Sequence record: NC_018854.1
Length of the DNA stretch: 64,000 nucleotides
Reading direction: 5' to 3' (one strand)
From: Escherichia phage ECBP1
The notes under the pieces were generated by a model. The model ran no database searches. It was not told the DNA's origin and saw only the letters and a program-made list of their open reading frames with translations. Made by a program: the position numbers and the translations under genes. Below are positions 9,906-35,454 of this stretch, one piece after another. Every line of letters starts with the position of its first letter. Position 1 is the first letter of the stretch.

Positions 9906-10958
9906 ATGGCAAGCATTGACTCCTTGACTGTATGTAATTCACGTCAAGCTCGTAACTTTATTATTCGTGCCCTGAAAGCAGGTAACGTACCATTCCTGAC
10001 TTCATCACCTGGCATGGGTAAATCTGCAATCATTCGTTCTATTGCAGAAGAATTTGGTATGAAGTTGATAGATCATCGTCTGTCTACTTCTGCCCCAGAA
10101 GATCTTTCTGGTCTACCATTCCGTAATGGTGACCGTGCAGAGTTTATTCCATTCGCTGATTTATTCCCTATTGAAGGGGATGAAGTACCAGAAGGTTATA
10201 ATGGCTGGCTCCTGTTCCTTGATGAGTTCAACTCAGCTAAGAAAGAAGTAGTAGCTGCTGCATACAAACTAATTCTCGACCGTATGACTGGTCAGAAAAA
10301 ACTTCATCCTAATGTGATGATTGTCTGTGCTGGTAACAAAGCTACTGACCGTGCCATTGTTAATCCTCTGGGTACTGCAATGCAGTCTCGTGTGGTTCAC
10401 TTTGAAATGGAACTTAACTTCGACATCTTTGTTGAAGATGTAATGATTCCTCAACAATGGGATGAACGTCTGGTTGCATTTCTACATGCTAACCCAGGTT
10501 ATCTGCATGACTTCGACCCAGCCCATAAGAACAAAACATTCTGTTGCCCTCGTACTTGGGACTTTGTTAACAAAGACCTTAAGAATCAGCCGGAAGGTGC
10601 TCTTCCTGATGAAGATTCTATCTACTATGCAGGTCACGTTACTGCTGGTAAGGCTACAGAATTTGTTCAGTTTACCCAGGTATATAATCGTATGATTACG
10701 ATTGAGAAGGTAGTCAAAGACCCTATGGGTTGTGCACTACCAGAAGATAACAACCTGTGTTGGGCTACCGTTAACCATCTAGCTAACAAAACTACTGAAG
10801 AGAACTTCGCTGATGTTCTTCAGTACATCGAACGCTTTAAAACGTTCACCCATAAGATTCTGTACTTCCGTACAGTAGGCAGAACATTACCAGAACTTCA
10901 GGCTACTCCTGAATGGCGTAAGGCTGCTGCTAATATCTCTCGTTACATTCACGGATAA
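9906..10958 (+). CDS. AAA+ ATPase (MoxR-like; N4 gp24-like)
   Basis: Walker A SPGMGKSA and Walker B-like LLFLDEF; immediately upstream of a vWA protein. Confidence 0.65.
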   Translation: MASIDSLTVCNSRQARNFIIRALKAGNVPFLTSSPGMGKSAIIRSIAEEFGMKLIDHRLSTSAPEDLSGLPFRNGDRAEFIPFADLFPIEGDEVPEGYNGWLLFLDEFNSAKKEVVAAAYKLILDRMTGQKKLHPNVMIVCAGNKATDRAIVNPLGTAMQSRVVHFEMELNFDIFVEDVMIPQQWDERLVAFLHANPGYLHDFDPAHKNKTFCCPRTWDFVNKDLKNQPEGALPDEDSIYYAGHVTAGKATEFVQFTQVYNRMITIEKVVKDPMGCALPEDNNLCWATVNHLANKTTEENFADVLQYIERFKTFTHKILYFRTVGRTLPELQATPEWRKAAANISRYIHG

Positions 10959-10962
10959 AACA

Positions 10963-12138
10963 ATGAACCAATTTCCTCAGCACACACTTAGTGATGAACA
11001 ACTCATGCGCGAATATGACCGTATTCAGGCGCAGGCGTTTCTCGGACGCAGTGCTGCCTTCTTTGGTTCATTACTATGTAGTCTTAAATTCTCATGGAAA
11101 CGTGAGGATTGTCCCACTGCATGTACTGATGGGATAGAACTCCATTTCAACCCAGACTTCTTTATCTGGATGTGTCCAGATGCAAGGGAAACAGTATTAA
11201 TGCATGAACTATGGCATGTGGCATATCTACATGACATCCGTCGTGGAAGCCGTGACCCGGAAGTCTGGAACCAGGCATGTGACCACTTCATTAACCTTCA
11301 GTTAGAGGAGGATGGTTACAAGTTCACTGGTATTAATGAAGGCATTTGCAAAGACCCTCAATATAAAGGATGGGTCGAAGAAGACATCTACGATGACCTG
11401 ATGAAGAACCCTCAGAAAAGGCAGAAGCCGTCAGGGGGTGCTGGAGCAGGTCTTGCTGGCGACATGAAATCCCCCACTTCGGGACAGTCCCAGGGTGCTG
11501 TCGTCAACAACGTAGTACGTGCAATGCAGAGCCAGAAGATGGCTGGTGGAACAATGCCCGGTAAGGGTGCTGGTCGTATGGAAGAGGTTATTACCCAATT
11601 CCTTAAACCAGTGGTTCCATGGCAAGAAGTACTCATGAACTTCTTTACCGACATTGATGACACTCACTATACGTGGGCCAGACCTAACCGTCGTTACACT
11701 GACATTTATCTACCTTCCCTGGAAGATGATGAAGGACGTCTACGACACCTAGCCTACTTTGAGGATGTATCTGGTTCTATTAGTAGTGCTGACTCTCTGC
11801 GTTTTAACTCAGAGGTTGCCTACGTTAAGAGTCAATTCAATCCTAAGAAGATGACCCTAATCACCTTCGACGATGTTATCCAGGAAGAAATAGACATCAC
11901 TGAAGAAGATACTTTCGAAGAGATTAAGATTACTGGACGTGGTGGTACAAACCTGGAACCAGTACGCGAATGGATTATTAAGAATAAGCCAACCGCTGCA
12001 ATCATATTCTCTGATATGTATGTTCGTCCAATGGAAGAATTGCCATTTGATATTCCTATCATCTGGTGTGTTCTGAATAATCCTAATGCTACCGTACCTT
12101 TTGGGGAGGTAGTTCATATCCCTAAAGGAATGAAATAA
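10963..12138 (+). CDS. von Willebrand factor A domain protein (N4 gp25-like)
   Basis: MIDAS-like DVSGSIS; zinc-metalloprotease-like HELWH in the N-terminal part. Confidence 0.6.
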   Translation: MNQFPQHTLSDEQLMREYDRIQAQAFLGRSAAFFGSLLCSLKFSWKREDCPTACTDGIELHFNPDFFIWMCPDARETVLMHELWHVAYLHDIRRGSRDPEVWNQACDHFINLQLEEDGYKFTGINEGICKDPQYKGWVEEDIYDDLMKNPQKRQKPSGGAGAGLAGDMKSPTSGQSQGAVVNNVVRAMQSQKMAGGTMPGKGAGRMEEVITQFLKPVVPWQEVLMNFFTDIDDTHYTWARPNRRYTDIYLPSLEDDEGRLRHLAYFEDVSGSISSADSLRFNSEVAYVKSQFNPKKMTLITFDDVIQEEIDITEEDTFEEIKITGRGGTNLEPVREWIIKNKPTAAIIFSDMYVRPMEELPFDIPIIWCVLNNPNATVPFGEVVHIPKGMK

Positions 12139-12644
12139 TGGTTGTTAATGGTAATTCTCTATATCGTTCATCTCAGTTGCTGGATGTCCCAGACCGTAAG
12201 ATATCCGAGCATGGTGTAAGCTATGGATTAGGTGAAGCTGGTTATGATATTCGTATCAAACAGGATATTACCTTCTATCGCTTATTTGGGTTGATTCCAA
12301 TGGTGAAAGTCGTTGATGGAGGTCAAGTATCACGCCATCTAGGTAAGTTCGCGTTGGCATCTGCAATTGAGAAGTTCAACATGTCCCCATCCTGTGTAGC
12401 TATCGTTCACGATAAGTCTACATGGGCAAGACGTGCATTATCTGTGTTCAATACCGTAATAGAACCAGGATGGAAAGGGTATTTGACTCTTGAACTGGTC
12501 TATCATGGTCGTAAGAAACTACATATCCCGGCTGGTGCTGGGATAGCTCAAGTATTATTTCATCTGGTTCAGGAACCTGCTAATTACAATGGCAAGTATA
12601 TGAACCAGGAAAACAAACCAGTGGCTGCTAGACCTTCAAAATAA
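12138..12644 (+). CDS. dCTP deaminase/dUTPase-fold protein
   Basis: EPGWKGYLTLEL resembles the dCTP deaminase IDPGFRG..TLE motif; GYDIR earlier. Confidence 0.5.
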   Translation: MVVNGNSLYRSSQLLDVPDRKISEHGVSYGLGEAGYDIRIKQDITFYRLFGLIPMVKVVDGGQVSRHLGKFALASAIEKFNMSPSCVAIVHDKSTWARRALSVFNTVIEPGWKGYLTLELVYHGRKKLHIPAGAGIAQVLFHLVQEPANYNGKYMNQENKPVAARPSK

Positions 12645-12674
12645 AAGGCTATCCGGCTTAATCAAGGAAACAAC

Positions 12675-12884
12675 ATGTCAGTATTTCAAGTAACTCATGC
12701 AACCTCAAATCTACGTTTAACCATTAATGCTGCAAATGTAGTTGCAGTGGAACAGATTCCACTGTCTGATTGTGCACGTATTACGCTTGTAAATGAAGGT
12801 ACTTTGGATACCAAAGAAAGCTATCGTTCAGTACGCAATTACCTGAAAAAAGCTCTTGCTCCTGCAAGCAAAGACGCTGAGTAA
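12675..12884 (+). CDS. hypothetical protein
   Basis: 69-aa ORF; hairpin after its stop. Confidence 0.4.
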   Translation: MSVFQVTHATSNLRLTINAANVVAVEQIPLSDCARITLVNEGTLDTKESYRSVRNYLKKALAPASKDAE

Positions 12885-12894
12885 GTAGCTGCCT

Positions 12895-12921
12895 AAATAG
12901 CCCAGCATAGTTGGGCTATTT
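12895..12921 (+). terminator. hairpin, possible terminator
   Basis: 10-bp stem aaatagccca / tgggctattt with a 7-nt loop; no strong T-tract. Confidence 0.35.
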
Positions 12922-12957
12922 GAGAAGAAACTAACTCAACCTCACATAGGAACCATC

Positions 12958-13200
12958 ATGGAATCTTTAGCAGCAATCCTTGTTTTCTTATTCATATTAG
13001 CTGTATACCTTATCCCTACTATCATTGCTTTTGCACGAGGCCATGCCTCTAAGTGGGGTATTGGTGTACTCAATATCGTATTAGGCTGGTCATTAGTATT
13101 CTGGGTAGTAGCACTGATTTGGGCACTGTCTAATAAAGGTCAGAATCAAGTTACAAACGTAACTGTTGTTCAAACCAATAGTGGCAGTAAAACAGAGTAA
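12958..13200 (+). CDS. superinfection-immunity-like small membrane protein
   Basis: IPTIIAFARGH...LNIVLGWSLVFWVVALIWAL matches the recalled Imm-superinfection family signature; two TM helices. Confidence 0.55.
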   Translation: MESLAAILVFLFILAVYLIPTIIAFARGHASKWGIGVLNIVLGWSLVFWVVALIWALSNKGQNQVTNVTVVQTNSGSKTE

Positions 13201-13276
13201 CTAACCTAAGCATCATTGCATAGTGGTGCTTGTGGAAGTTACTTCCAGCTCATTGCTTATCCATCTCCTAACCCAA

Positions 13277-13305
13277 GCCCACCTAACCCGTGGGCTTTTT
13301 TATTT
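13277..13305 (+). terminator. intrinsic terminator
   Basis: gcccac-ctaaccc-gtgggc followed by ttttttattt. Confidence 0.6.
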
Positions 13306-13320
13306 ACAGGTACTCTTATG

Positions 13321-13704
13321 TCAAGCAGACAAAATGGTAAGTCTATCCTGCAAGGACTGGACTTAAGTAAGCTGGAACAAACTGCAATGCTTACTTTAGG
13401 TAAAACCATACATGACCAAGTGGAAATGGATGGGATTAGTTCTGATGTCTATGCAAAAATGCAGGCTCTTATTCAGAAAGGATGGCCCAGCAGAGTATTT
13501 AATATACCTACATACATTCCCCCAGAACCCCATCTGAAATCTAAGGTAGACCGAATCATAGATAAGTTCTGGCTTAACCCATGTGGAGATGACATGCATC
13601 TTTACCTGGCTCAAATACAAAAGAATCCTCGTACTAAGGATGTGTTTAAAAGTAAGAGCACTACCCATCACTACCCATGGTATAGAAGGGGTAGTAAATA
13701 CTAA
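13321..13704 (+). CDS. hypothetical protein
   Basis: Start moved to the ATG after the terminator (track start 13216 would read through it). Confidence 0.45.
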   Translation, partial: SSRQNGKSILQGLDLSKLEQTAMLTLGKTIHDQVEMDGISSDVYAKMQALIQKGWPSRVFNIPTYIPPEPHLKSKVDRIIDKFWLNPCGDDMHLYLAQIQKNPRTKDVFKSKSTTHHYPWYRRGSKY

Positions 13705-14147
13705 TGCGTATCCCATTCCTAAGAAAAAGGGAACGAAATCCTGTTCTTTATAATAAAGGCATAGAGGATGAGTATGAACTCAACCGTAAAGCTCGTTCCT
13801 ACACAACAAAACTATTCATGGGGACTAACAACCCTGATAGATTATTGGACTTTGTTTTTGAACAAGTCTTTATCATATACAGCTTAGCTATGTCTGCTGG
13901 TTCACGAGAAGTAAGTGATAAGGCAAGACATGCTCTCTGTATGCTCCGTAAAGAGTATGAAGCCCTCATGTATGAAGACTTGTACTCCTTTAAAGAAGAA
14001 ACCGCTGTAGCATGTTCTGTGGCTCTTACTGAAGGTGTAGCAGTATTACAAGAACTACCCCGTAGTGAGTTTAAGCTGGTATACGTTCAGGTTAAGAGAA
14101 TCACAGAGACAAGAAGTGGTATCACTAACTATCTAAGGTCATTCTAA
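13704..14147 (+). CDS. hypothetical protein
   Basis: 147-aa ORF; stop/start overlaps. Confidence 0.45.
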   Translation: MRIPFLRKRERNPVLYNKGIEDEYELNRKARSYTTKLFMGTNNPDRLLDFVFEQVFIIYSLAMSAGSREVSDKARHALCMLRKEYEALMYEDLYSFKEETAVACSVALTEGVAVLQELPRSEFKLVYVQVKRITETRSGITNYLRSF

Positions 14148-15091
14148 TGATTAAGGCATCAGTAATTGCAGATTCCGTTCATCCAGAAACAGGAACCCGT
14201 ATCACAACCTTTGAATTGGTTTATCCCCGATTCATTCACAGTGAGTTTATGACTCACCGTGTATTCAACCGCAATGCTTCAAGTAGCCGTGCTATTCCTA
14301 CCTCTAAGTTAATCGAACAGGTTCGCAATGAACCAGTGATGCCAAGTCACTGGGGCAAGAACCAGAAAGGTATGCAAGCAGATGGAGAACTCACTCCTAT
14401 GGAGATTGAGGATGCTAAGTTTATCTGGGATAACGCTGCATCTGCTGCTGCTGTGTATGCTGAACAGCTACGCCGTGGGCAAGTACATAAACAGATTGTT
14501 AACCGTATTCTGGAACCCTTCACACATATCCGTGTAGTGGTAACCTCAACTAGCTGGGCTAATTTCTATGGACTGCGTGACCACAAAGATGCACAACCGG
14601 AGATTCGTGAACTGGCTCAAGCAATGCGTAAGGCACATGAAGAAAGCACACCAAGAGCATTACCGTATGGGCAATGGCATTTGCCATATATTGCTCATAT
14701 TGACCGTGTTGGGGCTTACAATTTCTGCAAACGTAATCGAATTACACGCGATGAACCAAGTGATGCAGAAGTGCATGGACTACTTCTCAAGGTAAGTGCT
14801 GCACGCTGTGCTCGTGCTTCCTATAACAACTTTGAGGGACGTCCCTCTACTATCGAAGAAGATCTTGGCTTATTCGCTAAGTTAGTGGAAAACCAACCTA
14901 TTCATGCTTCACCAACGGAACATCAAGCTACGCCTATGAACCTTGGTGAGAAGTATGTGAATAACATGAACCCAGTTACCTGGGAACAAGGTGTTACATC
15001 CATGGATAAAGAAGGGAATCTGTACTCAGGTAACCTGCTCCACTTTATCCAATTCCGTAAATTAATTCCTGGTGAGACTATTACTGAATGA
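14147..15091 (+). CDS. thyX: flavin-dependent thymidylate synthase
   Basis: ThyX-type motif THRVFNRNASSS (RHRxxxxxxxS-like). Confidence 0.7.
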   Translation: MIKASVIADSVHPETGTRITTFELVYPRFIHSEFMTHRVFNRNASSSRAIPTSKLIEQVRNEPVMPSHWGKNQKGMQADGELTPMEIEDAKFIWDNAASAAAVYAEQLRRGQVHKQIVNRILEPFTHIRVVVTSTSWANFYGLRDHKDAQPEIRELAQAMRKAHEESTPRALPYGQWHLPYIAHIDRVGAYNFCKRNRITRDEPSDAEVHGLLLKVSAARCARASYNNFEGRPSTIEEDLGLFAKLVENQPIHASPTEHQATPMNLGEKYVNNMNPVTWEQGVTSMDKEGNLYSGNLLHFIQFRKLIPGETITE

Positions 15092-15327
15092 AAAAACTAG
15101 CTCTATACGCAATGCTAATTAGTACCCTACTAACACTGACCTACGCATACAAAGTTGCCTTTGTCGTAGAAACAGATATGCAGTTCATTCGAGCTAGTAT
15201 TCTGTTCTTTGTAAGCGAGATTGGTTTATGGTGTGTTTACTACTTTGCTCGTGACTACGAAGCAATTCGTGAGCAAGAAGAAGTGAAAAAACAAATGATA
15301 CGATTTGTAGAACAAAATCGTAAGTAA
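15088..15327 (+). CDS. small membrane protein
   Basis: 79 aa with two hydrophobic helices. Confidence 0.45.
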   Translation: MKKLALYAMLISTLLTLTYAYKVAFVVETDMQFIRASILFFVSEIGLWCVYYFARDYEAIREQEEVKKQMIRFVEQNRK

Positions 15328-15333
15328 ACCTAA

Positions 15334-15358
15334 GACCTCCTCCGGGAGGTCTTTTTTT
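15334..15358 (+). terminator. intrinsic terminator
   Basis: gacctcc-tccg-ggaggtc followed by ttttttt. Confidence 0.65.
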
Positions 15359-15387
15359 GGTTTCAATTAACTCTTTCAGGAGGGCAT

Positions 15388-16130: not shown

Positions 16131-18698
16131 ATGTTAGTTGCAGATACCAACGAAATAGCTACCTCAGCGACACTGGGTGGCAAAGAAACAATTGCCTTTG
16201 GCATCTCAGATGACTCGGCATTCTTCCATGTATTAAGTACTTCCCTGTATAACAATCCTACTCTGGCAGTAGTTCGTGAGACTATATGTAACAGCTGGGA
16301 TGCTCATATTGAGGCAGGTAAAACTGATACCCCTATTCGTATCACCATTGATACAGACAACTTTATTACCTTCCGTGATTACGGTAGTGGTATTCCAGAT
16401 GAACTCATTGGTTCCATTTATGGTGTCTATGGTGCATCTACTAAGAAAGCCAACATTAGTGTTACTGGTGGCTTTGGTCTGGGATGTAAATCTCCATTCG
16501 CTTATACAGATAGCTTCCAGGTTACTTCATGGAACCAAGGAAAGATGTCTGTATATAACGTAGCTAAGGCTGCGATTGAGAATGATGGTAAGCCGGGTAT
16601 TGTCCCTATTGTTACCAATATACCTACTGAGGAATCCGGTCTGGAAGTTAAATTCCAGTTAGGCAAACATGATTTAAATACCTTTATTCATTACATCAAG
16701 TCAATCGTATTTAACGGTGAGATTAAAGCTGAGCTTAGTATCCCTAAACTCGTTAAAACAGAAGAAGGTAATAGTATTCAACAAGGTGACTACACTTTAC
16801 TGAATACGCTGGGCATGTCATTTGAACCTGGTTCATATGATATGTCTGATAGATGGTATCAGGGCTATATGGGTAGCAGTAACATATACGTTCGCTACGG
16901 TAATGTAATGTACCCAATTGTATCCAGCCCAGCTAGTGAAGAAGCTGTAGGTCTTATCCTCAACTTCATGAATATTATTGGTGCTGGCAATTTAGTAGTT
17001 CAGGCTGCACCAGACACCTTAGCTATTGCTCCTAGTCGAGAAACACTGTCTAACCAGAAGTTAACCGACGATGGTATTACTACTCTATGCGTAGATTTAG
17101 TAGACCGTATGGAGAAAGAGATTAAGGCTAAGATTCCTGAAGCCATTAAGCAGGTTGAAGAATATGCCTCTAAATCCTCTACTCGCTTTTGGGAATATCC
17201 ATCTTTCTTGGGTGCTGTTACAGATAGAACTGTTCAACGCTATATGTCTTCTAGTTTATGGACTAAACAACGTAAGCATCACATAAAGCACTGGCGTAAC
17301 TTATCCAATAAGGCGTTATTAGCTCGTCCTGAATATGCAGGTCTTAAGAAGCTGTATGGTAAGGCTATGCATGCTCTTAAGGATACTCGTGAGGAAAGTA
17401 CATACTCCCCATTCTCAGAATTAGTATATCGCCATCTGCATTTACCTCGGCTTGCTGCTTTAAAAACCTCTGGTATTAAGTGGTCTGGTTACATAATGAA
17501 TCAAGGCAACCGTGTTGACTTGGTAAAAGGTAAACTTACTGACTACTTTAGGATATACAATAACTCTCACCAAAGTATTGGCATATTTACTACCAAGAAC
17601 GTTGTAGTTACCCGACGTTTATCTGACTGTGCAGACTCTTTCTCATACTTCCCTGAATACAATCGAGGTGACCTGGAGCGTACAGCTTTTGTTCATGTCG
17701 TTGGTCCTAAGAAAGGTGCAGCAGAGGAAGCTGTAGCTAAGTTCACTGCTATGGGTTATCGGGTGATTGACCTTACTCAATATAATGAGTGGGACAAACC
17801 AACTAACTTCCGCAGGGAACAAGCTAAGATAGCTGCTGAGAAACGAGCCAAGACAATAGCTGCCAATAAAACCAAAGCAGGTGGTAAAACCAATGCTCTG
17901 ATTTCATTGAATGCAGTTCTTGGTGCTACCCAGGTACGTAATAAAAATGGGGATTGGGAACCCAGGCCGTATATTCAGAAAGAATTTGCTGACCCAAGTC
18001 GTCATGAGAAATATGGTTTCGTTGAGATAGAACAGCCTAAGTACTACGTACTAGCCAATCAGGTTGGTTCTGGTAGTCCTGTAACTGCTCGAATTGGAAC
18101 CATGTGGAAATGGTATGAGTTGCCTGATGAGATGAAAGCAGAGACTGTTGTCTGTCGTAATCAAATCGAAGCTAACAAGGCCAAACGACGAGGTGCTATC
18201 CACATTGATGATGTTCGCTTTAGTGAATTGATGTCTGTTATTACCAGCAAAGGCTTCAAGAAATATGTTACTGAACATCGCATCGGTATTCTTGAATACG
18301 TAGGACTGGATGACAGGGAATACTGGGAAATTCTAGACATACTGGGTCTAACCTTCAAACCCTTACAGAATCTGATTTTCAAACCAGAGTATGAATGGGC
18401 ATATGACTTTTTACGAAATCGACCACACGACAACAAAGAAAAACTTGTTGAAATGGGTTGTATTAAGTCAGTTGATGACTTAGAGCCATATGTAAAACTG
18501 GTTAATCCCCGTAACCATAAGTACTTTAAAGTACTTAATGATTACAAAGAATTATTCAGTTATAGCTGGAATAAAAATGACATCCTACAGACGCTGGACT
18601 TAGGTAGTTTGGTCAAACACCTTAAGAAGAATCCAGAGGATATTCCTGGGTTTAAGTCCCTCTACCGTAATCGTCTAAATAAACTGAAAGGTAACTAA
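16131..18698 (+). CDS. rIIA: rIIA-like protein with N-terminal GHKL-type ATPase fold
   Basis: N-box-like ICNSWDA and G1-box-like DYGSGIP; large protein before an rIIB-sized partner. Confidence 0.5.
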   Translation: MLVADTNEIATSATLGGKETIAFGISDDSAFFHVLSTSLYNNPTLAVVRETICNSWDAHIEAGKTDTPIRITIDTDNFITFRDYGSGIPDELIGSIYGVYGASTKKANISVTGGFGLGCKSPFAYTDSFQVTSWNQGKMSVYNVAKAAIENDGKPGIVPIVTNIPTEESGLEVKFQLGKHDLNTFIHYIKSIVFNGEIKAELSIPKLVKTEEGNSIQQGDYTLLNTLGMSFEPGSYDMSDRWYQGYMGSSNIYVRYGNVMYPIVSSPASEEAVGLILNFMNIIGAGNLVVQAAPDTLAIAPSRETLSNQKLTDDGITTLCVDLVDRMEKEIKAKIPEAIKQVEEYASKSSTRFWEYPSFLGAVTDRTVQRYMSSSLWTKQRKHHIKHWRNLSNKALLARPEYAGLKKLYGKAMHALKDTREESTYSPFSELVYRHLHLPRLAALKTSGIKWSGYIMNQGNRVDLVKGKLTDYFRIYNNSHQSIGIFTTKNVVVTRRLSDCADSFSYFPEYNRGDLERTAFVHVVGPKKGAAEEAVAKFTAMGYRVIDLTQYNEWDKPTNFRREQAKIAAEKRAKTIAANKTKAGGKTNALISLNAVLGATQVRNKNGDWEPRPYIQKEFADPSRHEKYGFVEIEQPKYYVLANQVGSGSPVTARIGTMWKWYELPDEMKAETVVCRNQIEANKAKRRGAIHIDDVRFSELMSVITSKGFKKYVTEHRIGILEYVGLDDREYWEILDILGLTFKPLQNLIFKPEYEWAYDFLRNRPHDNKEKLVEMGCIKSVDDLEPYVKLVNPRNHKYFKVLNDYKELFSYSWNKNDILQTLDLGSLVKHLKKNPEDIPGFKSLYRNRLNKLKGN

Positions 18699-18702
18699 TC
18701 TG

Positions 18703-20751
18703 ATGAAAATCGAACTGATTTCTATCATCGCACTGGCAGTTGACAGTCGTAACCTTACATTGTGGAAGCCCGATGGCTCCACGATTGTATATCCTCAGAG
18801 CGACCCACGGGTTGCTCGCATTGTATCTGAAGCTCAAACTAAAGGTCTGGGAACTACCAAAGACCAAATAGAAGTAAACATCGCACCAGAAGTAAACCTG
18901 CGTACTGAATATCTGGAAGCAGAGAAGAACACTAACGGATTCGTCCGTTTCTTCAAGGTAGCTAAAGCTAAACTCAAAGAGTTCTTTCAGGATGGTACAG
19001 GTGTTCCACCTGACCGTATTATTTCTGATATTAAGCTGGGTAATCCTACTAAGACACTGGTGTCTAAAGCTATGGATACCTTTCTGGCTGTACAGGCCAA
19101 TGAACCAGAAGTAACTGTAACAGATGGTTGTTATGACAAACGTGACAATCTGATGTGGGTTACTGGCTGGGACAAAGACCATAACCATCCTGCACTGGTT
19201 CGTTTTATTAACGACGTAATGGGTTGTGGGTATGAATATACTAACACCATGCTCAAACAGGAATGGCCTGTTGCAGTTCGTGCAGTATCTGATGATGAAA
19301 TGGGTGAGTTTGCTAAACAAGCCGAACACATCAAAGGGGTTCATGTTGTATTCACCAGTCGTAAACATACCCCACCACCTTACATTGAAGTAACTAAAGT
19401 TACGAACCAGGATAAGCTGGCTGCTGCCTCGGAGAAACTAGCTGCATTGGGTGCTATTAGTACTGATGACGCTAACTTCCACACCGATGTGAAGGAAGAT
19501 GAAGTGGTTGTTGCTGTTACCAACAATGGGGTTATCCCCGGAGTTGAGAACCTGCAACGTCACTTACGTCAGTCTGCCAAGCTGAAAGACTACAAGGGCT
19601 TTACTAAGTTCCTTGAACGTCTGGCTCCGGTTATTAAAGACCGTCTGCACTCAGTAGAAGACCTGATGAAGTTCATGGAAACTGCTGAACTGCCTATTGC
19701 CGATGATGGTTCAATCCTGTTCCTCAAACGCCTTAAGTCTAGTGGTATAGAAAACGGTAAACGTGTATTCGTTGACTGTCACTCGGGTAACATTCGTCAA
19801 TGGGTAGGCTGTAAAGTGCAGGTACGCGAAGACCTGGTAGACCCTGACCGTCGTCAGGATTGCTCTAACGGTCTGCACGTAGCATCCATGAGCTATCTAC
19901 GTGGCTTCGGTGGTAATGTGACCATCCTTGGTAAAGTAGCACCGGAAGATGTATTTGCTGTTCCTCAGTACAGCACCAATAAAATGCGTGTATCTGCATA
20001 TCATATTATTGCTGAACTACCGGAAGAGGAACGTAATAATGTTAATAATGGTATCTACCTGTCTAAGACAGAAGTAGGTAAGAAATTGCTTAATGATGCC
20101 ATCGTTGGGAACCATAGCTCACCTACCACACTTATTATGGTTGGGGGTCATTATGGTACTAACCTCAAATACACTAATCTCACATCTGGTTCTGTAGAAC
20201 AATTCCGTACAGTTGCTAGCAAAGAAGCACTGAACATGGAAGAGTCACTGAATGAAGCTGTAGCTGCTGAACCAGTGAAGGCTACTGACCTTAAACCTGT
20301 TATTAAGAAGGCTCCTACTGTGAAAGAACAAATCCAGGAACTGGTCAAAGAGTTCCTTACTGCAACAACCCCAGAAGATAAGTTAGCTGCTGCTGACCTT
20401 CTGGTAGAACTGCGTGGTAAAGCTCGTAAGCCTTGGGCTGCATTCGATGTGGGTAATGATGTAGTAGCTAAGATTGCTGATGTACGTGCTACCTATACAG
20501 CTAAGCCTATTGGTAAACCTAAAGCTGTTAAGCAGGATAAGACAGTTAAACCTACTAAATCTAAGCCTGCTATTAATAGTACTAATGCCAACATCATCAG
20601 AGGTTATCTAGCAGATAGTGGTATGTCTGATTATCAGAAAGCCCACTCCATTCATGACCTGAAACGTGCAGCTAAGAAGTCTTATGCTGCTATGGGTCTT
20701 ACTGAAGAAGAGTGCAAAGCCATTGATAAGCTGAAGCACCACCTTAAGTAA
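18703..20751 (+). CDS. rIIB-like protein (assignment by position only)
   Basis: 682 aa directly downstream of the rIIA-like gene; K/A-rich C-terminal tail. Confidence 0.4.
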   Translation: MKIELISIIALAVDSRNLTLWKPDGSTIVYPQSDPRVARIVSEAQTKGLGTTKDQIEVNIAPEVNLRTEYLEAEKNTNGFVRFFKVAKAKLKEFFQDGTGVPPDRIISDIKLGNPTKTLVSKAMDTFLAVQANEPEVTVTDGCYDKRDNLMWVTGWDKDHNHPALVRFINDVMGCGYEYTNTMLKQEWPVAVRAVSDDEMGEFAKQAEHIKGVHVVFTSRKHTPPPYIEVTKVTNQDKLAAASEKLAALGAISTDDANFHTDVKEDEVVVAVTNNGVIPGVENLQRHLRQSAKLKDYKGFTKFLERLAPVIKDRLHSVEDLMKFMETAELPIADDGSILFLKRLKSSGIENGKRVFVDCHSGNIRQWVGCKVQVREDLVDPDRRQDCSNGLHVASMSYLRGFGGNVTILGKVAPEDVFAVPQYSTNKMRVSAYHIIAELPEEERNNVNNGIYLSKTEVGKKLLNDAIVGNHSSPTTLIMVGGHYGTNLKYTNLTSGSVEQFRTVASKEALNMEESLNEAVAAEPVKATDLKPVIKKAPTVKEQIQELVKEFLTATTPEDKLAAADLLVELRGKARKPWAAFDVGNDVVAKIADVRATYTAKPIGKPKAVKQDKTVKPTKSKPAINSTNANIIRGYLADSGMSDYQKAHSIHDLKRAAKKSYAAMGLTEEECKAIDKLKHHLK

Positions 20752-20813: not shown

Positions 20814-21209
20814 ATGTCTAAAGTATTCAGAAGTAATCGCAAAGCAACTGATGAAGACATCATTCGTATGAATGCTGTTGGTCTGTCCCTCGCAACTATC
20901 GCTAAGACGTTGGGGGTTCACCCAACCACAGTCACTTTGCGATTGCGTTCTCTAAACATTGAACCAGCCGACACACGTCGGACGTTCATGGAAAACGTAT
21001 TACGACCTTTACCAACCCATGTGGCTGATTGGCTGTCAGAACAAGTTGGTCCTGCTTATGAGATTCGCTCATATGTAAGAGACTTGATTCTGGAGGCATA
21101 TAATAATCGCCACCTTAACCAAGAGAGTGAGCATGACAAGTTCATCCGTTTGTACGCTGGCAAATACGGAAGCCTGGTTCCGGAAAGCAGTAGCAAATCC
21201 AACAAGTAA
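20814..21209 (+). CDS. helix-turn-helix DNA-binding protein
   Basis: LSLATIAKTLGVHPTTVTLRLRSL resembles an HTH. Confidence 0.45.
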   Translation: MSKVFRSNRKATDEDIIRMNAVGLSLATIAKTLGVHPTTVTLRLRSLNIEPADTRRTFMENVLRPLPTHVADWLSEQVGPAYEIRSYVRDLILEAYNNRHLNQESEHDKFIRLYAGKYGSLVPESSSKSNK

Positions 21210-21594
21210 GAATATTAGTACCCAGATTGGTTGTCATCTGGAAGAAGTATGTGAAATGTTAGATGAGTTGACCCCATCCTGTGAGGATAGTATGCAAGTA
21301 TTAGCCGATGCACAGGCTGCTTTGAGTAAATTATCTCTGCTGATGAAAACAAATCACATGGCTATTTTCCCAGCGAATAGCAATCGCTTAGCTTTGCTGG
21401 ATTCACTGGCAGACCAGATTGTTACAGCAACTGGAGTCGGTACTTTTCTTGGGATGAATGTCCCTGGAGCATTGGCTGAAGTCAATCGCTCAAACTATTC
21501 TAAGTTTGAAGATGGAGAACCTGTCTTCAATGGGAACATGAAAGTTATGAAAGGGAAAGACTACACTCCCCCGGATTTAACCCCTTACATCTAA
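21127..21594 (+). CDS. hypothetical protein, possibly MazG-like; start uncertain
   Basis: LEEVCEMLDEL resembles the MazG EExGE motif; track start overlaps the upstream gene by 83 nt. Confidence 0.3.
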   Translation: MSMTSSSVCTLANTEAWFRKAVANPTSKNISTQIGCHLEEVCEMLDELTPSCEDSMQVLADAQAALSKLSLLMKTNHMAIFPANSNRLALLDSLADQIVTATGVGTFLGMNVPGALAEVNRSNYSKFEDGEPVFNGNMKVMKGKDYTPPDLTPYI

Positions 21595-33592: not shown

Positions 33593-34010
33593 TATCGTGA
33601 AGGGTTCTGTTAGAATCCTTTGAGATAGGAACTCCTATCATAACCTTTCTTATCTTAATCTTTGCCGTATGGCACTGACGCTAGGGTTTATGCCCATCCG
33701 TCAGGTAGACTATTTTAAGAATGGGTTATCACAGAAAATGTAAAGCAACATTCGGGTTAATCAATGGCCTCTCCCTATAGGGGCCATTTCTGAATGATAG
33801 GCTATATCCCAAAGGTTAGTATCTTTGGGATAAGGCTTCAGATCCCTTATCAAACTAACCTCTCAATGTTGAGCATTTTAATCACATAAGCCCCTATATG
33901 GGCTGGGTTAAATGTCGGATAGCATAGCTACCTACAGCATCGAATTGTTAGGTCTTACATGCAACATAGGGTATAAAGGGAGGACTCGTCCCCTCCCTCC
34001 TATTATAATG

Positions 34011-34080
34011 GTCGAGGTAGCACGTAGGCATGTGCAGATGGTCGCTACTTCTCTCGCTGGTTCGAATCCAGCCCCCGACC
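34011..34080 (+). other. tRNA-like element (T-arm and acceptor present; no canonical anticodon arm)
   Basis: T-arm gctgg-ttcgaat-ccagc; 6 of 7 acceptor pairs; D-arm-like gcac-gtaggcat-gtgc; preceded by TATAAT. Confidence 0.3.
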
Positions 34081-34371
34081 TATTGACATCCTATCAATGA
34101 GTACATTAAGCTAACGTGCGGAGGTTTACACTATAGCTGGTGTAGGTGGAGAAGACGGCAGGGTAGCTACCTGTGCTTAGTGTACTCTTTGATAGTTTTC
34201 GTAAGCGATTATGCGGTTTTTTAGAAACGAACCAATAACATAAATGCAAACGATGATGTTGTTCTGATGGCAGCCTAATAAGCCAAGCGTCAGTCGGGAG
34301 TGAGTCGTCCTGATTATCAAACGACCATGGAGTGTCCTCGTCCGTGTATTAGAAACGGGGAGTTAATCAAT

Positions 34372-34450
34372 GGTGTGTGATAGCTCAAATAGGTAGAGCG
34401 TGAGGCTACAGTGCTGAATGGTTTGTGGGTTCGATTCCCACCCATGCCTA
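34372..34450 (+). other. tRNA-like element (D-arm and T-arm present; anticodon arm not foldable)
   Basis: D-arm tagctcaaataggtagagc; T-arm gtggg-ttcgatt-cccac; acceptor 6 of 7 with wrong spacing. Confidence 0.3.
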
Positions 34451-34516
34451 CAGTCCAGACGATATCTGAGTGACTATAAAAACAGATGGAGCCAGGTGGA
34501 ATCCCTGGCAATTAAT

Positions 34517-35153: not shown

Positions 35154-35227
35154 GCCCACTTAGCTTAGACGGGGAAAGCAACCGACTAATAATCGGAAGG
35201 TCACTGGTTCAAATCCAGTAGTGGGTA
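35154..35227 (+). tRNA. tRNA, canonical 74-nt cloverleaf; anticodon reads AAU (Ile) by standard numbering, unusual A34
   Basis: Acceptor gcccact / agtgggt; D-arm gctt-agacgggga-aagc; anticodon arm accga-ctaataa-tcgga; T-arm actgg-ttcaaat-ccagt. Confidence 0.6.
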
Positions 35228-35454
35228 CTTATTAATAGAGAACATAGTCCTGATTGCATTGCACTCTAAAGACAATGCCGGTGAGACAGTCCGGCACTCT
35301 AATTATTGAAAACATACCTAACGGTGTGAGTATGAGCAGACTATAATGCTCAATTACAGTTAACTATTATCGGACTATCAATCCTGTTTGCTGGTACAAG
35401 CACCGGTGGTAATAGTTAACTGGCCTAGCCTCGTTAGCTGCGTTAAAGCTACTA

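Follow-up and report, generated by a model that had tools for sequence, protein, structure and literature searches.

The genome of Escherichia phage ECBP1 (NC_018854.1) carries a gene for a dCTP deaminase-like protein and, further downstream, a gene for a ThyX-like thymidylate synthase. The locus raises the question of whether the two proteins jointly lead from dCTP towards dUMP and dTMP and render the phage self-sufficient in thymidylate, as proposed in the preliminary description. We addressed it in a window comprising the whole analysed stretch of 64,000 nucleotides, across which the GC content ranges from 0.36 to 0.46.

Gene content and organisation of the locus

An ORF check of the window placed both genes on the + strand at the coordinates originally reported, and the ORFs, Pfam matches and PHROG matches all agree on the presence of a dCTP deaminase-like gene (dcd) and thyX at 12138-15091. 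This region shares 88-93% DNA identity with more than 50 Gamaleyavirus genomes that are annotated alike, and the gene order in ECBP1 matches that of N4 gp24-gp34. The gene pair is already known from N4-like coliphages and represents an ordinary thymidine-supply module. The locus contains the following features:

12138-12644, + strand: dCTP deaminase-like protein, N4 gp26 homologue, 168 aa (Pfam DCD, phrog_1663)
12675-12884, + strand: 69-aa ORF in the position of gp27 in G7C (phrog_7594, 7.8e-35)
12894-12922, + strand: stable 13-bp hairpin 3' of the 69-aa ORF (fold computation)
12958-13200, + strand: 80-aa Imm-family membrane protein, gp27.1 of G7C/Bp4 (Imm_superinfect PF14373, phrog_1039)
13275-13305, + strand: intrinsic-terminator-like hairpin with U-run 3' of the imm gene (fold computation)
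13318-13704, + strand: gp28-like ORF, 128 aa, ATG at 13318 (phrog_12812, 1.3e-72)
13704-14147, + strand: gp29-like ORF, 147 aa (phrog_9867, 6e-89)
14147-15091, + strand: ThyX-like flavin-dependent thymidylate synthase, N4 gp30 homologue, 314 aa (PF02511, phrog_85)
15088-15327, + strand: 79-aa ORF with hydrophobic segments, gp30.1 in G7C (phrog_12633)
15332-15360, + strand: intrinsic-terminator-like hairpin with U7, closing the unit of gp28-like, gp29-like, thyX and 79-aa ORF (fold computation)

Four small ORFs, encoding proteins of 69, 80 (the membrane protein), 128 and 147 aa, lie between dcd and thyX. The sole further match of the 69-aa ORF is to Pfam bpX6, below threshold (18.3 bits, cut-off 27). 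The hairpin behind it (-19.5 kcal/mol, z -3.6, with none of 200 shuffles as good) occupies a place equivalent to that of a stem-loop annotated in the G7C record. The 80-aa protein, which contains two hydrophobic stretches and had been listed as uncharacterised, can be assigned at the family level to Imm_superinfect, the family of T4 Imm superinfection immunity, since it matches all 42 positions of PF14373 (6.4e-17, 61.6 bits, cut-off 27.9); its phrog_1039 match reaches 5e-30. Its gene, followed by a hairpin of -12.5 kcal/mol (z -2.8) and the sequence UUUUUU, constitutes a separate, hairpin-bracketed unit unrelated to nucleotide metabolism. A longer, TTG-initiated version of the gp28-like ORF, starting at 13216, runs through this terminator and is unlikely to be real; the phrog_12812 match leaves out its first 34 residues and starts at residue 35. 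The gp28-like and gp29-like genes occur in only 78 and in 73 phage records, respectively, all of them Enquatrovirinae, with N4 gp29 among the latter.

The dcd and thyX genes do not form one operon. The dcd start codon and the stop codon of the VWA/DUF2201 gene just before it overlap (TAATG), coupling dcd translationally to the preceding AAA-ATPase/VWA genes. By contrast, thyX is coupled to the gp28-like and gp29-like genes and a small membrane ORF of 79 aa: the gp29-like ORF overlaps the gp28-like ORF and thyX by one base at its start and stop (TAATG), the start of the 79-aa ORF overlaps the thyX stop (ATGA), and the unit ends with a hairpin of -18.2 kcal/mol (z -4.1). Relative to G7C and Bp4, dN/dS values are 0.10-0.20 across dcd, the gp29-like gene (0.10-0.18) and thyX, indicating that all three are under purifying selection.

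Identity of the two enzymes and segment order in the ThyX-like protein

Judged by their Pfam and PHROG scores, both predicted enzymes match their families far above chance, and the identities assigned to them at this level held up, but neither reached its NCBIfam equivalog cut-off. The gp26-like protein matches Pfam DCD (PF22769; E=3.8e-16, 60 bits, cut-off 27) and phrog_1663 'dCTP deaminase' (1.3e-57), with TIGR02274 as its best NCBIfam model (75.9 bits, cut-off 92.8). Its closest PDB matches are the bacterial Dcd proteins 4dhk (3e-11) and 3km3 (5.6e-11), with which it shares a KST-AR...EPGW-G-TLE motif. In an alignment with E. coli Dcd (b2065), Ser94, Arg98 and Glu119 correspond to S111, R115 and E138, so that the catalytic triad is kept, as is the C-terminal KYxNQ lid motif (K153-Y154-x-N156-Q157).

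The 314-aa gp30-like protein is a ThyX by fold, matching Thy1 (PF02511; E=2.2e-13, 50.8 bits, cut-off 24.8) and phrog_85 'thymidylate synthase' (3e-116), with 53.1 bits against the TIGR02170 cut-off of 87.9. It consists of two homologous parts:

14207-14656, + strand: ThyX core, residues 21-170, collinear with canonical positions ~60-200 (profile positions, T. maritima alignment)
14762-14935, + strand: relocated segment, residues 206-263, with two helices and H253-A-S-P-T-E258-H259 (segment profile, swapped-order domain matches)

Nearly all ThyX substrate-binding residues are present. A residue-level alignment with T. maritima (Tm) ThyX equates T36-H37-R38...S46-x-R48 of the core with Tm R78-H79-R80...S88-x-R90, and the dUMP-binding arginines R120 and R144, both invariant in 121 sequences, with Tm R147 and R174. 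H253, E258 and H259 align to Tm H53, E58 and H59. Little or no variation was seen among the 121 diverse relatives at H37, R38, S46, R48, R120, R144, H253, E258 and H259. The expected conservation of motifs is borne out for the Ser, Arg and Glu of Dcd and for nearly all ThyX residues; the RHR(X)7S(X)R signature departs from it at its first Arg. This signature here reads T36-H37-R38-(X)7-S46-S47-R48: its His, second Arg, Ser and last Arg are invariant, whereas the first Arg is replaced by an invariant or near-invariant Thr (THR in 124 of 149 cluster representatives). Ala takes the place of both Tm E86 and Tm Y91. The family also shows a conserved G-x-W-H-L-P-Y motif and ~50 extra conserved C-terminal residues (GN..GW.Q.RK; R304 invariant).

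The new finding at this locus is a rearrangement of ThyX segments. Canonical ThyX has, at its N-terminus, a helical segment of ~55 residues with the His53 motif; profile comparisons place this segment close to the C-terminus of the gp30-like protein. The canonical order, with the His53 segment preceding the RHR core, is inverted, and this applies family-wide. In its native order, the protein is matched by Pfam only over positions 60-190 and by TIGR02170 only over positions 61-206. Conversely, the family profile aligns to T. maritima ThyX as two separate domains, the order of which is swapped. The His53 motif (H-x-[ST]-P-x-E-H) and its preceding helices are present in the relocated segment, whose homologous stretch in T. 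maritima ThyX covers residues ~21-62 at the N-terminus (S22...S30, H53, E58, H59). A profile of this segment alone matches the ThyX N-terminus (E=4.6e-4) and scores H53A and H53D mutant chains ~8 bits lower. When residues 206-259 were placed before residue 18, the profile searches returned continuous matches to Pfam (positions 13-190, 66.8 bits) and TIGR02170 (positions 18-206, 69.6 bits, still below the cut-off), a gain of 16 bits in each case.

The clade with this arrangement is very large and mostly phage-borne: the rearranged type was detected in 1034 of 50,697 phage records, and the family comprises 2861 clusters at 50% identity (E<1e-30). Relatives contain inteins within the THR...SSSR motif and immediately behind H253; essential enzymes typically host inteins at their catalytic sites. 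Our literature searches found neither a description of a ThyX segment rearrangement nor any enzyme assay or genetic experiment on N4 gp26, N4 gp30 or members of the rearranged clade. On balance, we lean towards a natural, previously undescribed permutation of ThyX with unchanged chemistry, which would set apart a phage-dominated class of distinct structure.

A probable dCTP-to-dTMP route and its alternatives

Given the rearranged order, the THR motif and the sub-equivalog scores of both proteins, we infer their activities from family membership and conserved residues. Both identifications hold, the originally suggested route from dCTP towards dUMP and dTMP remains the best reading, and ECBP1 probably possesses a pyrimidine module of the N4 gp26/gp30 type that raises dTTP supply, including the same ThyX chemistry on a rewired chain. 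The latter is the most economical interpretation, as all canonical active-site parts are kept. In this scheme, a homotrimeric gp26-like dCTP deaminase would convert dCTP to dUTP, as its fold family and Ser/Arg/Glu triad suggest. Host Dut, a bifunctional gp26 or possibly a gp36-like pyrophosphohydrolase would then generate dUMP, which the gp30-like ThyX would methylate to dTMP with FAD, NADPH and methylene-tetrahydrofolate, consuming no tetrahydrofolate, unlike ThyA. Host kinases would finally produce dTTP. The purpose would be to provide more dTTP for replicating a genome of 42-44% GC in a host of ~51% GC. Values of dN/dS of 0.12-0.20 and the inteins in relatives likewise speak for this reading.

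The notion of a self-sufficient supply, however, goes too far, as there is no clear phage gene for the step from dUTP to dUMP: ECBP1 encodes no unambiguous dUTPase, and methylene-tetrahydrofolate, NADPH, FAD and the kinases leading to dTTP must come from the host. With Dcd, Dut and ThyA all present in E. coli itself, the phage pair would bring a quantitative benefit. One candidate for the missing step lies outside the dcd-thyX region:

21133-21594, + strand: gp36-like ORF, candidate nucleotide pyrophosphohydrolase, possibly dUTP to dUMP (phrog_671)

It matches phrog_671 'nucleotide pyrophosphohydrolase' (8e-31), RefSeq calls its G7C counterpart gp36 a 'nucleoside triphosphate pyrophosphohydrolase family protein', and the acidic metal-binding motifs (EExxE...DxxxD) expected of a MazG-like, all-alpha NTP pyrophosphohydrolase are invariant. 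The ORF has no Pfam or NCBIfam match, its PDB sequence matches are noise (DR2231 at E 0.7-0.8), and its AF2 model, a helical bundle, retrieved nothing below E=1 in a Foldseek search of the PDB.

Bifunctional dCTP deaminase-dUTPases exist in M. jannaschii, M. tuberculosis and B. halodurans. The gp26-like protein could be such an enzyme, or mainly a dUTPase, and yield dUMP directly, making a separate Dut unnecessary. Its short length (168 aa), as in bifunctional and archaeal enzymes, its matches to the bifunctional enzymes 4xjc (8e-8) and 4a6a/2qxx (~1e-6), to S. tokodaii dUTPase (2yzj, 3e-4) and to Pfam dUTPase (8e-6), and the fact that no dedicated trimeric dUTPase gene was seen in annotated relatives all speak for this option. 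Nevertheless, we regard it as the less likely one, because the best matches are Dcd proteins of the monofunctional bacterial type with the same EPGW variant (4dhk, 3km3) and the best NCBIfam model is TIGR02274. Mono- and bifunctional enzymes are not known to be separable by sequence alone, and both types are among the PDB matches.

The pairing could also be coincidental, with dcd, for instance, countering dCTP-depleting host defences or simply lowering dCTP and thyX serving, for instance, as a trimethoprim- or folate-independent back-up. The two genes lie in separate hairpin-delimited units, with two hairpins and the unrelated imm gene between them, so that any co-regulation is hypothetical. 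Moreover, this Dcd type was found in only 290 phage records, so that the ThyX occurs mostly in phages without it. Yet the product of one enzyme is a single hydrolysis step away from the substrate of the other, and both genes are conserved as a pair, in unchanged order, in phages ranging from N4 to the N4-like phages of Achromobacter, Erwinia, Pseudomonas, Sinorhizobium and roseobacters, making independent roles rather improbable.

It is very unlikely that the rearranged ThyX-like protein makes no dTMP at all, being inactive, regulatory or devoted to another substrate or product, such as PolB-type methylation of UMP or dCMP or the release of 5-hydroxymethyl-dUMP for a modified base. Still more doubtful is a changed catalytic outcome or partner in the THR-type clade (another reductant or substrate, or release of a 5-hydroxymethyl or methylene intermediate), which would imply that carrier phages synthesise a non-canonical pyrimidine, if only transiently; a permutation with normal chemistry is much more likely.

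As a gene pair, dcd and thyX are routine, being annotated in every N4-like genome, and explain a dTTP top-up in an AT-richer phage; the general picture of phage nucleotide metabolism is unaltered by the ThyX finding. ThyX itself has been studied as a drug target and a mechanistic oddity. In ~2% of sequenced phage genomes, its active-site pieces are ordered unlike those of every solved or assayed ThyX, and many 'thymidylate synthase' annotations in the clade depend on a partial profile match. A natural permutant would reveal which chain connections and residues are dispensable, and better profile models could capture the whole rearranged clade.

Relation to known systems

N4 gp26/gp30 and their orthologues in G7C, Bp4, IME11 and St11Ph5 are the same genes in the same order (gp24-gp25-gp26...gp28-gp29-gp30...rIIA-rIIB), and nothing essential differs in ECBP1, although it has the gp28-like gene missing from G7C and lacks the HNH insertion found between gp24 and gp25 in that phage. 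As for T4 Imm, the 80-aa protein covers the whole PF14373 profile, but this family member sits in an N4-type podophage as an insertion, and the Bp4/G7C annotation ties the Imm-like gp27.1 to no N4 gene. With the bacterial Dcd proteins of E. coli (b2065), B. thailandensis (4dhk) and A. phagocytophilum (3km3), common features are the catalytic Ser, Arg and Glu, a (D/E)PGW-G-TLE block and, at the C-terminus, KY-x-(N/G)-Q; the gp26-like protein is shorter (168 versus 188-193 aa), has shortened N-terminal loops and is 29% identical to E. coli Dcd. PolB (PDB 4p5a), a ThyX-like UMP/dUMP C5-methylase of polyoxin biosynthesis, matches the gp30-like family profile weakly in sequence (E=0.0075) and has the canonical segment order, unlike the gp30-like protein; nothing in ECBP1 points to nucleoside-antibiotic chemistry. 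In canonical ThyX (T. maritima TM0449, PDB 1O26; M. tuberculosis, H. pylori, PBCV-1), finally, a chain of ~220 aa with an RHR motif carries the His53 segment before the core, whereas the gp30-like protein, with its 314 aa, THR, G-x-W-H-L-P-Y motif and ~50 additional C-terminal residues, carries it after the core.

Gene content and organisation of the dcd–thyX region

The two genes singled out in the preliminary description, dcd (gp26-like, in N4 gene numbers) and thyX (gp30-like), are real and their coordinates hold in our own ORF scans. Both are already annotated in public records: across 12138–15091, the DNA is 88–93% identical to that of more than 50 Gamaleyavirus phage genomes (Schitoviridae, Enquatrovirinae; G7C, Bp4, IME11, St11Ph5, UE-S5a and others). 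The profile searches proposed as a check recovered both families, and the region contains the following elements:

12138–12644, + strand: dCTP deaminase-like protein, 168 aa (Pfam DCD, 3.8e-16; phrog_1663, 1.3e-57)
12894–12922: stable hairpin, 3' of a 69-aa ORF
12958–13200, + strand: Imm_superinfect family membrane protein, 80 aa (6.4e-17)
13275–13297: terminator hairpin followed by U6 (whole element to 13305), 3' of imm
14147–15091, + strand: ThyX-like protein, 314 aa (Pfam Thy1, 2.2e-13; TIGR02170, 53.1 bits against a cut-off of 87.9)
15332–15353: terminator hairpin followed by U7, 3' of a 79-aa ORF

As a gene pair, dcd and thyX are thus ordinary and previously annotated, and the interpretation first attached to them is partly supported. 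In annotated relatives, the N4 gene order runs from gp24 (AAA ATPase) and gp25 (VWA/DUF2201) through gp26 (dCTP deaminase), gp27, gp27.1 (Imm), gp28 and gp29 to gp30 (FAD-dependent thymidylate synthase) and small ORFs, followed by rIIA and rIIB, and the ORF scans of the window agree with this arrangement. The rIIA-like (855 aa, GHKL ATPase domain) and rIIB-like (682 aa) genes lie 3' of the thyX unit at 16131–20751, as in N4. The gp24-like (AAA ATPase) and gp25-like (DUF2201 metallopeptidase-like plus VWA) genes at 9906–12138 are intact and adjacent, whereas in G7C they are separated by an HNH endonuclease gene and in the Bp4 record both are split into fragments; the PHROGs label 'HNH endonuclease' for the gp25 family seems to have been transferred from insertions of this kind. 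Rfam and tRNA scans within 12138–15091 returned no matches. Further downstream, an Rfam-supported tRNA-Ile (anticodon AAT, ARAGORN; 35154–35228) and two ARAGORN-only candidates, Ala-CGC (34010–34081) and Cys-ACA (34373–34451), close the + strand gene block just ahead of a strand switch near 36 kb (GC skew).

The upstream VWA gene and dcd overlap by a single base, the final A of the stop codon being the first base of the start codon (TAATG), and the same one-base overlap recurs at the gp28-like/gp29-like and gp29-like/thyX junctions. Together with the hairpins, these overlaps indicate a layout in which gp24, gp25, dcd and the 69-aa ORF form a unit ending at a hairpin, imm follows with a terminator of its own, and gp28, gp29, thyX and the 79-aa ORF make up a further terminated unit. 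Sigma-70 promoter sites were fewer than in shuffled sequences, as expected for N4 middle genes, which are transcribed by phage RNA polymerase.

The membrane protein initially regarded as uncharacterised proved to be a member of the Imm_superinfect family, unrelated to nucleotide metabolism. In the notes to the Bp4 and G7C records, gp27.1 is likened to Imm of JS98, a T4-like phage, and not to an N4 gene product, and its number places it between N4-derived genes. With a strong hairpin on one side and a terminator on the other, imm resembles a moron that was inserted between the dcd and thyX units and is expressed on its own. The gp28-like and gp29-like products gave no informative matches, and the label 'shikimate kinase' that they bear in some GenBank records found no supporting match in Pfam or NCBIfam. 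A role for them as general ThyX partners was likewise dismissed, as they occur in 73–78 records, all of them Enquatrovirinae, compared with 1034 for ThyX. The gp28-like gene is absent from G7C, and N4 has only the C-terminal 56 residues in common with it. The mechanical ORF call (13216–13704) begins at TTG 13216 and crosses the terminator hairpin; since the PHROG match only begins at residue 35, the true start is probably ATG 13318.

Two further small ORFs deserve mention. The 69-aa ORF (12675–12884) has a sub-threshold match to Pfam bpX6 (E=0.0022, 18.3 bits against a cut-off of 27), a domain of MoxR-vWA-beta-propeller ternary systems, and lies directly 3' of the AAA(MoxR-like)-VWA(DUF2201)-dcd genes; the match may be due to chance, but its location beside genes for a MoxR-type ATPase and a VWA protein is curious. 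The 79-aa ORF (15088–15327; phrog_12633) has hydrophobic segments; its start and the stop codon of thyX overlap (ATGA), and a strong terminator follows closely, suggesting a small membrane protein whose translation would be coupled to that of a soluble flavoenzyme.

The proposed route to dTMP and its alternatives

The best reading of the dcd/thyX pair is that of a pool-shifting module. The gp26-like protein would deaminate dCTP to dUTP, which would then be hydrolysed to dUMP, with host Dut, a bifunctional gp26 or the product of a gp36-like ORF (21133–21594) as candidates for this step, and the ThyX-like protein would convert dUMP to dTMP by reductive methylation with FAD, NADPH and methylene-tetrahydrofolate. 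The identities of the two proteins support the route from dCTP through dUMP to dTMP as originally suggested, but 'self-sufficient' is an overstatement, because folate, NADPH, FAD and kinases would come from the host. A plausible reason for requiring more dTTP and less dCTP is the difference in GC content between the phage (0.36–0.46 in the window) and E. coli (~0.51).

Consistent with its assignment, the gp26-like protein has bacterial dCTP deaminases as its nearest solved structures (4dhk, 3km3; E ~1e-11), with which it shares the block KST-AR...EPGW-G-(Y)-TLE. Its residues S94, R98 and E119 align to the catalytic residues S111, R115 and E138 of E. coli Dcd (sequence from the K-12 genome). 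A C-terminal K-Y-x-N-Q motif is conserved as well. The homologue search returned only sequences that are 94–98% identical. With 75.9 bits, the protein stays below the equivalog cut-off of TIGR02274 (92.8), and its weaker matches include bifunctional dCTP deaminase-dUTPases and one archaeal dUTPase. The sequence is compatible with either dUTP or dUMP as product and cannot decide between them. The dN/dS ratio is 0.12–0.16 (vs G7C and Bp4).

The gp36-like ORF, whose start overlaps the end of a preceding 131-aa HTH-like ORF (20814–21209), was matched by phrog_671 ('nucleotide pyrophosphohydrolase', 8e-31), and its EExxE...DxxxD motifs are invariant. Its predicted fold is a helical bundle (AF2), and Pfam, NCBIfam, PDB-sequence and fold searches (AF2 and Foldseek) yielded no match. 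In N4-like phages, it could act as a dUTP- or dNTP-cleaning enzyme.

Alternatively, the two enzymes might feed a modified-pyrimidine pathway. Such chemistry is conceivable, given that 5-hmdUMP has been trapped as a ThyX intermediate, and in other phages a dCTP deaminase and a thymidylate synthase homologue do supply hypermodification. However, downstream modification genes are absent, the known 5-hmdU pathways rely on ThyA-type enzymes and this ThyX clade is spread across a great number of phages in which thymine replacement is not known, which makes this possibility unlikely. An inactive or re-purposed ThyX-like protein is argued against by its invariant active-site residues, by purifying selection and by the inteins of its relatives.

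Active-site residues and segment order of the ThyX-like protein

The ThyX-like protein, which is 99% identical to its counterpart in Escherichia phage vB_EcoP_PE007, is matched by Pfam Thy1 and TIGR02170 only over profile positions ~60–200, corresponding to residues 21–170. Its AlphaFold model (26 relatives in the input) is confident (pLDDT 86, pTM 0.85), and Foldseek ranked ThyX structures at the top, with ~158 aligned columns. Two alignments of diverse relatives (26 and 121 sequences) show H37, R38, S46, R48, R120, R144, H253, E258 and H259 to be invariant or nearly so. In residue-level alignments to T. maritima ThyX (Tm), R120 corresponds to R147, R144 to R174, H253 to H53 and E258/H259 to E58/H59, while sequence inspection, in agreement with the Pfam coordinates, places R18–R38 ungapped against Tm I60–R80, equating H37-R38 with H79-R80, S46 with S88 and R48 with R90. 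The weight of these Tm residues is mirrored in solved mutant structures among the Foldseek matches (H53A/D, S88A/C, R90A, R174A/K, Y91F). Three positions depart from Tm: the first Arg of the RHR motif is an invariant Thr (T36), and Ala occupies the positions of E86 and Y91. The family has conserved elements of its own, G-x-W177-H178-L-P180-Y181 and a C-terminal G-N-x-x-G-W-x-Q302-x-R304-K, and one may speculate that such an element makes up for the missing charge at T36.

The N-terminal quarter of canonical ThyX comprises two helices and an H-x-T-P-x-E-H loop (Tm ~21–59). In the phage protein, these elements are absent from between the first two strands, and a look-alike is found at residues 216–259 (VSAARCARASY ... 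LFAKLVENQPIHASPTEH). Four tests support the homology of this segment to the canonical N-terminus. First, a segment-only profile (58 diverse relatives) matched the Tm ThyX N-terminus with E=4.6e-4; 14 of the 15 matched ThyX chains took the top 14 places, the remaining matches being unrelated proteins (E >0.6), and the H53A and H53D chains fell ~8 bits behind, identifying H253 as the counterpart of H53. Second, the full-length family profile matched Tm ThyX (E=5.5e-8) in two domain alignments of swapped order (profile 215–275 to chain 31–88, profile 109–180 to chain 140–213). Third, joining residues 206–259 artificially to residue 18 produced a single Pfam Thy1 stretch over positions 13–190 (66.8 bits; native 50.8) and extended the TIGR02170 match to positions 18–206 (69.6 bits; native 53.1). 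Fourth, THR...SSSR precedes HxSPxEH in 124 of the 149 best cluster representatives. Searched by themselves, the C-terminal 146 residues had no Pfam match even at E<=10, so that the similarity is visible only by family profile or re-ordering. A plain circular permutation (171–314 followed by 1–170) brought no gain (51.2 vs 50.8 bits), nor did adding the N-terminal strand in front of the re-ordered sequence, and only the direct join of H259 to R18 restored a continuous match; we therefore describe the change as a segment relocation.

Spread of the clade and comparison with canonical ThyX

The family comprises 5262 clusters (50% identity) at E<=1e-3 and 2861 at E<=1e-30. Among 50,697 phage records, 1034 encode a member; these include N4-like, PB1/PAK_P1-like, ICP1, rV5-like, Campylobacter, Caulobacter and Flavobacterium phages. 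Fusion partners in long relatives, considered as a functional clue, all turned out to be inteins with HNH or LAGLIDADG endonucleases, with no metabolic domain among them. These intein-bearing proteins (520–650 aa; P0129, P0142, P0196, P0189, P0250, P0205, P0231) use three sites, inside THR-x-F↓(C/S)RNASSSR, at YPRFIH↓(C/S)EF and right behind H253, two of which fall in the THR...SSSR motif region; the ECBP1 copy is intein-free. Inteins prefer the catalytic motifs of essential enzymes, and the site next to H253 thus supports a putative catalytic role of the relocated segment.

Our literature search found no description of a rearranged ThyX and no assay of clade members; its novelty is only moderately secure, because several key ThyX papers lay beyond this search. 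N4-type ThyX, together with its very large phage clade, is a rearranged and apparently as yet uncharacterised variant of moderate interest to enzymologists and annotators, which leaves the proposed biology unchanged and differs from canonical ThyX in its THR-type motif and in carrying the His53-bearing helical segment behind the core rather than ahead of it.
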